Assembly: GCA_964016885.1 (NCBI GenBank)
Contig: OZ024766.1
Span: 3,224,001 to 3,288,000, forward strand
Length of the DNA: 64,000 nucleotides
Reading direction: 5' to 3'
From: Eledone cirrhosa
Lineage: Eukaryota
The notes beneath the pieces are model-generated. The model was not told where the DNA came from. It ran no database searches and worked only from the letters and a program-made list of their open reading frames with translations. The translations under genes and the position numbers were made by a program. Positions within the stretch are counted from its first letter, which is position 1; every line of letters begins with the position of its first letter. Shown in pieces: positions 46,401 to 49,400 of the stretch.

Positions 46401-49400
46401 CACAACACCATAACACAACCCACATAATACATCATACTCTGCACACTCACAACCTCCCATGCTATTACACAACCTACTGCAACATGGTTGGCTTATGTAA
46501 TTATCTACCATTAAAGTATTCGTCCTAGGTACAATCAAAATGAATCATAAAAGCCTCATTAACATTACAATTATGTTCGTTAGTTATAATTGAATTGAGG
46601 AATGAATTAAAATATCCAAATTATTTCTGCATTATGTTCAAAGCTGTTCTGTAATTGATTTTTATGTACAACTAGACTAAAATTATAACAATTAATTATG
46701 ATTAATCAGTTACTAATTTTTATCAAAATATTGTCTTTGTGTATGTGTATGTATATATATCATCATCATCATCATCGTTTAATGTCCATTTTCCATGTTA
46801 GCATGGGTTAGACGTGCTGTCCCATTGTGAGGCCGCCAATTCAGAGGACCGTGTTTTGCTCACACAGAACTCATTTTGGCTTGGTCTCTACAGCTAGATG
46901 CCCTCCCTAAATGCCAACCACATTTACAGTGTGGACTGGGTGCTTTTTCTAGCGACACCTACACAACCACTTTACAGTGTGGGGTGGATGTTTTTTTGTC
47001 GTAACACTTTACAGTGTAGACTGGGTGCTTTTTGTTGTGACTCCTACACAACCACGTTACAGTGTAGACTGGGTCCTTTTTGTTGTGACTCCTACACAAC
47101 CATGTTACAGTGTAGACTGGGTGCTTTTTGTTGTGACACCTACATAACCACTTTACAGTGTAGACTGGGTCCTTTTTGTTGTGACTCCTACACAACCACG
47201 TTACAGTGTAGACTGGGTCCTTTTTGTTGTGACTCCTACACAACCATGTTACAGTGTAGACTGGGTGCTTTTTGTTGTGACTCCTACACAACCATGTTAC
47301 AGTGTAGACTGGGTGCTTTTTCTTGTGACTCCTACACAACCACGTTACAGTGTAGACTGGGTGCTTTTTTTTGTGACTCCTACACAACTATGTTACAGTG
47401 TAGACTGGGTGCTTTTTGTTGTGACTCCTACACAACCATGTTACAGTGTAGACTGGGTGCTTTTTGTTGTGACTCCTACACAACCATGTTACAGTGTAGA
47501 CTGGGTGCTTTTTCTTGTGACTCCTACACAACTGCGTTACAGTGTAGACTGGGTGCTTTTTCTTGTGACTCCTACACAACAATGTTACAGTGTAGACTGG
47601 GTGCTTTTTGTTGTGACTCCTACACAACCACGTTACAGTGTAGACTGGGTGCTTTTTCTTGTGACTCCTACACAACCGCGTTACAGTGTAGACTGGGTGC
47701 TTTTTGTTGTGTCTCTTACACAACCACGTTACAGTGTAGACTGGGTGCTTTTTCTTGTGACTCCTACACAACCACGTTACAGTGTAGACTGGGTGCTTTT
47801 TCTTGTGTCTCCTACACAACCGCGTTACAGTGTAGACTGGGTGCTTTTTCTTGTGTCTCCTACACAACCACTTTACAGTGTAGACTGGGTGCTTTTTGTT
47901 GTGTCACCAACACAACTACATTACAGGAATTGGCGATTCAAGTACCTTAGCGGCATGTTGCATATCCAATCTCTCATATATTTTATCTGATGAAAACGTA
48001 CTGAAACACCATTGTACCTTTGAAATACGTATAATAAAATATATACTTTGGTTATGATAATATTTCTCATTTATTAATATTTTGAATAATATTATAGATA
48101 CTCCAGATAAATCTGTCGAGTGCTTCTAATCTATTGTAAAATTGAATTTGTTGAATAATCAACGAACCATATAAACTTTTGGTTATATATATAAGTGCTG
48201 AATAATACTTAAAGCAACAACAGAATATAAATCTTTATATTGATATCATAATATCAATACAGCTTTGTAAAGCTGATAATGCAGTTTTATATCACACACA
48301 CACACACACATATACACACACACACACACACACACATACACACACACACACACACACACACACACATACACACATACACACACATACACACACACACACA
48401 CACATACACACATACACACACACACATACACACACATACACACACATACAAACACATACACACACATACAAACACATACACACACATACACACACATACA
48501 CACACATACACACACATACAAACACATACACACACATACACACACATACACACACATACATTTACATACAAACACATACATTTACATACAAACACATACA
48601 CACACATATAAACACATACACACACATACACACACATACACACACATACACACACATACAAACACATACATTTACATACATATATATTTACACACATATA
48701 CATTTCCATAGACATATAAATATTTATATCATCATCATCATCATCATCATCATCATCATCGTTTAACATCTACTTCCTTCCTACACTAGCATGTTTTAGA
48801 CGAGTTTATCAAATCTTGAGGCAAGATTGGTCGGGTGACCATGTCTCGCTCGTATAGGACTATCTGGCAGGTTTTCTACGGCTGGATGCCCTTCCTAACA
48901 CCAACTACATTTACAGTGTGGACTGGGTGCTTTTTACCGTGTTACCTACAAAGTATATATATATATATATATATATATATATACGATATTAAATAAATGG
49001 AAACTATATTTATAAAACCATATTTATTTCATTATACATATTTCAGGGATACCAAATTAAAATATGGTATGCCTTCATCAGACAAAATACAATATATAAA
49101 CAGTTTTATAAATAATTTTGACGTACCCTATTAGATGCAACCATTATTTTTGGAGACAGCTTCCAAAAATAATGGTTGCATCTAATAGTCAAAATTATTT
49201 ATAAAACTGTTTATATATTGTATTTTGTCTGATGAAGAAACACCATATTTTAATTTGGTCAAAATTATTTATAAAACTGTTTATATATTGTATTTTGTCT
49301 GATGAAGACACACCATATTTTAATTTGGTATCCCTGAAATATGTATAATCAAATAAATATGGTTTTATAAATATAGTTTCCATTTATTAATATCGTATAT

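Follow-up and report, generated by a model that had tools for sequence, protein, structure and literature searches.

Hammerhead copies in the window

Several copies of a hammerhead-like motif lie in a 64,000-nucleotide stretch of the Eledone cirrhosa genome (hereafter the window), which raises the question of what kind of system they belong to and what to make of a C·C mismatch within their stem II. A generic core scan located four type I hammerhead cores, at 8416 (+), 47987 (+), 49081 (−) and 49299 (+), each with the CUGANGA, GAAA and NUH elements, and when 20 family copies, including three from the window, were used to build a covariance model, it recovered the same four cores plus one weak remnant. 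An earlier sequence-only reading had counted four family copies; four cores are indeed there, but the one at 49299 looks decayed, with pairs 10.3 and 10.6 broken and most of stem I gone. The features are listed below.

47919..48193 (+): focal Penelope-like subfamily (AAA/TTT), pseudo-LTR stub truncated at its 5' side, matching at 92% the 3' end of L088, a copy with an ORF
47976..47986 (+): focal stem I, 5' strand, 11 bp with 48034-48044, read from the sequence
47987..47993 (+): focal core C3-A9 (CUGAUGA), with no extra nucleotide ahead of stem II
47994..48021 (+): focal stem II, 3 bp, the C47997·C48018 mismatch, 4 bp and a 12-nt loop
48022..48033 (+): focal GAAA core and palindromic helix III (48025-48032), with cleavage predicted from the sequence after A48033 (AUA)
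48034..48044 (+): focal stem I, 3' strand
8402..8627 (+): GGA/TCT-subfamily pseudo-LTR stub, core 8416, C8426·C8451, A17 at 8466
8355..8399 (−): inverted 5' stub of the same repeat as 8402..8627, breaking within the core at CTGA (by-eye comparison with the subfamily upstream flank)
48954..49154 (−): AGG/CCT-subfamily pseudo-LTR stub, core 49081, A17 at 49033, (TA)n end, 96% to the 3' end of the full element L095
49159..49495 (+): head-to-head partner of 48954..49154, comprising a partial duplicate (49159-49259) and the decayed copy with core 49299
29035..29577 (+): broken piece of the ORF of this element family, from its endonuclease end (tblastn, 60-72% to L090 ORF aa 681-813; blastn)
57754..57893 (−): degenerate pseudo-LTR remnant without intact core (nhmmer E 0.0016; model match 17.7 bits, E 0.2)

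Stem II opens with GGA/TCT in the 8416 copy (+; its first pair being a G·U wobble), AAA/TTT in the 47987 copy (+) and AGG/CCT in the 49081 copy (−). In all three the first three pairs are followed by C·C and then by a distal stem (GTACTG/CAGTAC, GTAC/GTAC and ATACCA/TGGTAT, respectively), just as the sequence-only reading had described, and the AUA site that it predicted at 48033 is present as cleavage residue A17 of the focal copy. The focal stub has a TA-repeat end and stops about 50 nt before where the ATG of the element would fall, and dozens of genome copies at 92-97% to it share the same stop point. The window contains truncated stubs only, two of them with inverted partners, and the covariance-model search of the window placed no hammerhead near the ORF fragment at 29035..29577. 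In the contigs of two sequencing runs, of unstated kind, the 3' ends at 48092 and 48193 were seen again and C48028 appears as a minority letter. Rfam gave three matches at E ≤ 10 on the focal stretch, none of them a hammerhead, and microsatellite-driven matches only among the 150 of 425 matches listed for the whole window. Single-sequence folding signals are weak (z from −2.1 to +0.4), and the 8416 copy misfolds.

Other sequences of the window were recorded alongside. A tandem array of about 49-bp units (47148-47920) adjoins the 5' end of the focal stub, and similar 49-bp units are found at 22896-23008 and 36484-36685. Another interspersed repeat occupies 8730-9055, 21051-21242 and 51992-52056, where 8827-8955 form a perfect inverted junction; a copy is also inserted in the ORF region of L088. 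Two long stop-free frames, 13035-16466 (−; 1,143 aa) and 59097-62219 (−; 1,040 aa), have no Pfam match, and the former, in triplet-repeat-rich surroundings, could be a host exon.

Association with Penelope-like retrotransposons

The sequence-only reading put the motif forward as a candidate for an undescribed system. Our results point elsewhere: the motif is, with very little doubt, the type I hammerhead carried in the pseudo-LTRs of Hydra-type Penelope-like retrotransposons (PLEs), a kind of sequence already documented in the published descriptions (PMC8557442, PMC4209133). Genome copies on opposite strands, 3.5-4.5 kb apart, enclose ORFs. In three elements (L094, L095 and L097) hammerhead-bearing direct repeats flank an ORF of 734-746 aa, with repeat-to-repeat spacings of 3,489, 3,951 and 4,234 nt. 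The distance from the 5' core to the ATG is 236-237 nt for AGG elements and 259 nt for the focal subfamily (L087), and the 3' core lies about 1.1-1.8 kb past the ORF. For the focal subfamily the two halves come from separate loci, with hammerhead then ORF in L087 and ORF then hammerhead in L088. The association was also approached in reverse, using 20 of 123 matches chosen solely by high similarity to the focal ORF: the focal repeat (≥80%) was found in the sense orientation downstream at 16 of these 20 loci, together with a 5' copy at seven.

Other subfamilies follow the same arrangement. The GGA, C·A and AAG repeats are located in the sense orientation downstream of related ORFs (L105, L253, L245, L247 and L092). 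For the GGT lineages the link to an ORF is weak: matches were found at 4 of 20 loci in a first set, none in the usual geometry, and at 4 of 15 further loci in a second set, all sense and one in the usual geometry.

Pfam detected no RT or GIY-YIG domain in the family ORFs, and a PDB profile search with the family ORF found nothing. The ORF has a weak BLAST match to a Pfam-positive PLE ORF (E 3e-5), HTH_animal is annotated in its atlas neighbours (0.96-0.99), along with GIY-YIG or RVT_1 in some of them, and thirty full or partial homologues are 29-38% identical. The RT and endonuclease assignment is based on the BLAST and atlas matches together with the sequence motifs described below; by motif and atlas, a single RT plus GIY-YIG ORF lies between pseudo-LTRs, as in PLEs. 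Also as in PLEs, 5' truncation, inverted 5' copies and an optional 3' tail were observed, the tail being about 100 nt instead of 30-40. A quick tree placed 14 in-genome ORFs in one group (SH-aLRT 100, with caveats on composition); since its GGT and L089 rows are possibly neighbours of the hammerheads and not their partners, the tree was not used for event counts.

A neighbouring ORF, that of L044, in which Pfam recognises RVT_1 and GIY-YIG, was considered as the host ORF and rejected as belonging to a different family. It marks a second Penelope-like family in this genome (L044:5-1408, −; L042:2-1475, +), which has Pfam RVT_1 and GIY-YIG matches and a CxxxxCxxC linker and is Neptune-like by motif.

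Assignment to the Hydra clade

The Hydra clade is defined by RWK, DKT, a CxCx5C linker, CxxC and CxH, without the CCHH pair (PMC8557442). The family ORF carries RWR (a variant of RWK), DKT, YRDD, CxCx5C (CNCRNKSNC), CxxC (CDLC) and CxH (CRH), with one Cys inside GIY-YIG and no CCHH, and the elements insert into (TA)n as Hydra elements do. Its RT agrees by eye with that of Hydra-1_Obim in the supplement of PMC8557442; the grouping with named Hydra proteins is by this by-eye comparison, the tree having been built with unnamed homologues. Assignment to Nematis or Neptune was dropped on the basis of DKT, RWR and CxCx5C. The three full units (3,489-4,234 nt) exceed the size given for the clade (generally <3 kb), which is descriptive and not diagnostic.

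Abundance and structure of genome copies

Pattern searches returned at least 53,000 core matches for the hammerhead family in the 3.0 Gb genome. The pattern of the sequence-only reading has 22,615 exact matches versus none for the reversed pattern. Without the C constraint, the class with YG in loop III rises to 27,756 matches versus five reversed, a count that takes in a few secondary loop 2 matches and unrelated cores. Copies in which the second base of loop III is not G form another class and add 25,262 matches versus four reversed, and 98 of the 100 listed carry ATATATAT; their pattern admitted only C..C or C..A, and a mismatch frequency drawn from it would be biased. The sequence ATAYGTAT, which had been called invariant, is therefore so within the window only, about half of the genome copies being ATATATAT. 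The invariance of the core was built into the search patterns and is no evidence of conservation. The focal TACGTA form is nearly private, with two exact genome copies of its 48-nt stretch. Residue N17 is A in 165 of 168 copies; a per-position decay count, whose sample was enriched for exceptions, was left out of the results.

Most copies are 5'-truncated or inverted stubs with (TA)n ends, not retrozyme arrays. They are short (about 170-280 nt) and without ORF; their 3' ends form two clusters, at +94 to +127 and at about +210, that run into (TA)n, whereas at the 5' side they are staggered, between −6 and positions past −1,500. They extend about 50-170 nt beyond A17. One might ask whether such short, ORF-less units constitute an independent non-autonomous retrozyme family, yielding the linear or circular RNAs of 200-400 nt that the sequence-only reading expected, all the more as animal retrozymes have been proposed to derive from PLE repeats (bioRxiv 10.64898/2026.07.22.740005). 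The arrangement of the copies does not fit. Among the 100 matches listed, all from the first 25 Mb of one contig and inspected by eye, no run of three or more same-strand copies occurs within 1 kb, and neighbours closer than 1 kb comprise nine head-to-head inverted pairs, one tail-to-tail pair and three same-strand pairs of unlike variants. Likewise, the tandem arrays of 150-450 bp typical of retrozymes were not seen among the 100 matches listed and 30 loci, from the start of one contig. The staggered 5' ends and the tie of the repeat to ORFs (16 of 20 loci) also argue against independent retrozymes, which we regard as very improbable, and the PLE stubs remain the preferred reading.

Three observations on copy ends and on related motifs stand beside these results. 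First, in the AAA and C·A subfamilies the 5' ends concentrate between −61 and −76 relative to the core, which may mark a preferred stop or inversion site; the AAA set was biased by being chosen for similarity to the focal stub, while the C·A set was not length-chosen. Second, the two arms of some inverted pairs share a private substitution (G000:C1:56024900/56025395; 194415117/194415258; 271387503/271387680), which suggests that the arms derive from one template or were homogenised after insertion. Third, at L248, L249, L250 and L255 (G000:C1:5374992, 99323925, 122681367 and 133265892) the same palindromic helix III is combined with other stems (TGT..ACA, with GC in stem I) and with C or U at position 17, and no ORF match was found near them.

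A pattern scan of metagenomes yielded 47 loci, none with the paired stem II of the family and none matching PLE ORFs by tblastn, and they were taken as chance matches, not family members. Five metagenome contigs (L140, L141, L146, L170 and L174) carry a recurring CTGATGA...GAAATATGTATC motif, in which 6-7 of 8 stem I positions are pairable and stem II is not clear; possibly it is the hammerhead of another animal, or chance.

Constraint on the stems and on position 4

If the fold is under selection, the stems should keep pairing while their sequences change, and the sequence-only reading had claimed such compensatory change between lineages. In the first 30 unselected genome copies, positions 1-3 and 5-7 of stem II are paired in 30, 29, 28, 26, 27 and 25 copies, respectively, and positions 1-8 of stem I in 25-30; the core-closing pair 10.1-11.1 is A-U in 19, G·U in 10 and U-A in one. 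Position 4 of stem II is paired in none of the 30 and is C·C in 24. A larger alignment agrees: across 21 representatives, 11 of 17 pairs have changed on both sides (score 0.51 versus ≤0.13 for slid controls), and position 4 is unpaired in all 21, figures that are inflated and do not count independent events, the representatives being hand-picked and related. The three helices around the core, with helix I open, are thus supported by covariation, and the claim of compensatory change is borne out. The pairs neighbouring the mismatch switch between lineages (10.3 among A-U, G-C and U-A; 10.5 between G-C and A-U), and these lineages have ORFs 42-68% identical.

The C·C itself, previously described as conserved, is dominant at position 4 but not invariant. 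It occurs in 23,166 of the 27,756 YG-class matches (83%, after subtraction of 1,626 and 2,964). The 5' C is absent in 1,626, many of them C-to-T changes or secondary matches, and is thus kept in 94%; in 2,964 it faces a base other than C. One amplified C·A subfamily accounts by eye for about 69 of the 100 matches listed out of these 2,964. C-G appears in 108 matches, scattered sporadically over subfamilies; C-to-G is a rare transversion anyway, so this number shows only the absence of an amplified paired lineage. The GGT lineages, read by eye with a pattern that left out G, are C·C in 72 of 77, and C·U or C·A in three of their copies was rejected as a lineage state, being sporadic. In these lineages stem I is different, short and GC-containing, so the family is not AU-rich throughout as had been proposed. 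What is conserved is therefore a 5' C whose opposite base does not pair with it and is most often C.

Could the C·C simply be inherited from an ancestor and tolerated, with no role of its own? The amplified C·A subfamily, the relatedness of the lineages with its few independent events, and the helix II bulges and mismatches of other PLE hammerheads would all be compatible with mere tolerance: D. virilis has a bulge, and the S. purpuratus(1) row has C·A at position 4 by the present reading of Fig. S3 (PMC4209133). Against it, both flanking pairs switch while position 4 is never paired in the 21 representatives, the 5' C is retained in 94% of the 27,756 matches, and the pattern spans lineages with ORFs as diverged as 42-68%. 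We place simple tolerance on the unlikely side.

The mismatch falls near the point at which helix II of a canonical hammerhead, 4 bp long, gives way to loop 2 and its contact with helix I, which makes a role in docking or protein binding plausible. It is likely a flexible or recognised site, for docking of stem II on stem I or for binding by the protein of the element, and such a role likely needs the 5' C and an unpaired partner; this is the least certain part of our account. The bolder proposal, that dimer hammerheads have in the C·C/C·A at 10.4·11.4 a new functional element, which replaces the loop-loop contact by helix I docking or by RT-endonuclease binding that switches on cleavage, is one that we consider unlikely as it stands. 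If it were true, the 50,000-copy radiation would be a natural mutational scan defining the 10.4·11.4 site, and what Penelope hammerheads do would become directly testable.

Mismatches at the core-closing pair were noted as well. An amplified subfamily has A·C at 10.1-11.1 (AGG..CCC; G000:C1:218173-218221, L330, L331) and other subfamilies have U·U there (TAG..CTT, TGT..ATT), which is unexpected if fast cleavage needs that pair.

Helix III and probable cleavage as a dimer

In the focal monomer, helix III costs +2.9 kcal/mol by folding energy, whereas the duplex of two palindromes is favourable (−6.5 kcal/mol). The loop III states of the genome copies fall into YG (27,756), Y with a non-G second base (25,262; UA in 98 of the 100 matches listed) and purine-first (394, scattered). 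All the amplified states, UG, UA and CG, are self-complementary, with duplex energies of −2.2, −3.2 and −6.5 kcal/mol, and 11 of the 16 possible states are positive; the purine-first states are scattered although AU and GC would be palindromic too. The self-complementarity of every amplified state supports dimer cleavage. Dimer dependence, which the sequence-only reading had proposed, is thus likely by sequence; dimer cleavage is probably the function of the motif, and a lone copy would be inactive.

Taken as a whole, we hold with high confidence that this is a PLE pseudo-LTR hammerhead of which two copies likely pair via the palindromic helix III and cut the element RNA after AUA. Cleavage as a dimer would involve the 5' and 3' hammerheads of a single tandem transcript, or copies on two transcripts, and may release or trim unit-length RNA, as inferred from PMC4209133. 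Because copies end well beyond A17, the templates of most inserted copies would have continued through an uncut 3' site or been religated. Selection would act on active master lineages and not on the stubs.

The same extension of 50-170 nt beyond A17 is also compatible with the fold being kept as a protein-binding or reverse-transcription signal, with cleavage that is slow, protein-dependent or dispensable. For Anolis Poseidon, the one reconstituted PLE, the hammerhead cut only with protein, hammerhead mutants left insertion unaffected in vitro, and the reported RNA-seq had no reads ending at the cleavage site (PMC11167929). AUA is moreover the slowest of four triplets in ELVd (PMC1636495), and subfamilies with A·C (confirmed in L330 and L331) or U·U at 10.1-11.1 were amplified. 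Yet helix III has kept its self-complementarity over three sequence states, and the near-uniform A at N17 (165 of 168) is as expected under selection for dimer catalysis. A signal fold is accordingly a doubtful substitute for dimer cleavage, which we retain as the preferred function.

Comparison with known systems

No new class of ribozyme or mobile element is described here; the system is of a known kind, and dimer cleavage, the palindromic helix III and AUA sites are already known. The location of hammerheads in PLE repeats, their action as dimers, palindromic helix III, opposite-strand pairs and covarying families have been published (PMC4209133), as have the AUA cleavage triplet (PMC1636495) and Hydra hammerheads, including one from Octopus bimaculoides (PMC8557442 File S2). 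Weak stems and U·U at 10.1 are treated in PMC3088659, and retrozymes in PMC7761336 and PMC6155905. The words hammerhead, ribozyme and Hydra are absent from the main text of a 2026 paper on Octopus vulgaris repeats, and our literature searches found no paper on this motif, nor the term "C-C mismatch" in any of the papers listed by one of them. What appears new is a structural variant with good comparative support, the conserved position-4 mismatch; the searches returned no description of a conserved stem II mismatch, and as they did not cover Lunse et al. 2017, Repbase and Dfam, this novelty is provisional.

PLE pseudo-LTR hammerheads cut poorly in vitro. In the present family the stems swap freely in many lineages, some with long open ORFs, while the self-complementarity of helix III and the unpaired position 4 are fixed. 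These lineages offer natural controls for kinetics and binding (C·C and C·A; UG, UA and CG loops). The family also marks no fewer than 53,000 sites that both Rfam and Pfam miss.

Among Hydra-clade PLEs, including Hydra-1_Obim of Octopus bimaculoides (Craig et al. 2021, PMC8557442), the elements share the C-terminal GIY-YIG, (TA)n targets, RW(K/R), DKT, CxCx5C, CxxC, CxH and the lack of the CCHH pair, as well as a type I hammerhead near the 3' end and 5'-inverted copies. They differ in length, the units here being 3.5-4.2 kb with a 3' UTR of 1.1-1.8 kb against generally <3 kb. The hammerhead of Hydra-1_Obim is unlike that described here, and the 26 Hydra hammerhead rows of File S2 contain no mismatch within stem II, most of them having instead one additional nucleotide in the core, a helix III of 3-4 bp and an RGU/UGU-H site.

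The PLE pseudo-LTR hammerheads of Cervera and de la Pena (2014, PMC4209133) resemble the present ones in their location in both repeats, dispersed truncated copies, near opposite-strand pairs, many covarying families per genome, long helix II and proposed dimer cleavage. A palindromic helix III and loop 3, as in their min-HHRs, is present here and is also found in the hammerheads of Aedes (UA-CGCG-UAU) and D. willistoni PLEs. The family departs from the min-HHR consensus in having no extra nucleotide at 9/10.1 and in a 10.1-11.1 pair that is mostly A-U or G·U, not G-C. It differs further in a stem I of 8-11 bp in the main lineages and in position 4, where all lineages share a fixed 1x1 loop of C·C (C·A).

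With animal non-LTR retrozymes (Cervera and de la Pena 2020, PMC7229834) the family shares a type I hammerhead, low GC and very high copy number, and axolotl retrozymes (126,247 copies) also have a weak helix III that needs dimers. Retrozymes, however, are arrayed in tandem, in units of 150-450 bp, and make the canonical contacts between loops 1 and 2, whereas here the stubs are single or inverted and loop 2 is variable. The ELVd (+) hammerhead shares a natural AUA triplet and a long helix I (PMC1636495), but belongs to a viroid RNA with loop-loop contacts, an unrelated context. Finally, the canonical type I hammerhead with loop 1-loop 2 contacts has a 6 bp helix I, a 4 bp helix II and conserved loop bases, unlike the family described here, in which helix II has at least 7 bp with the mismatch and loop 2 varies in length and sequence.
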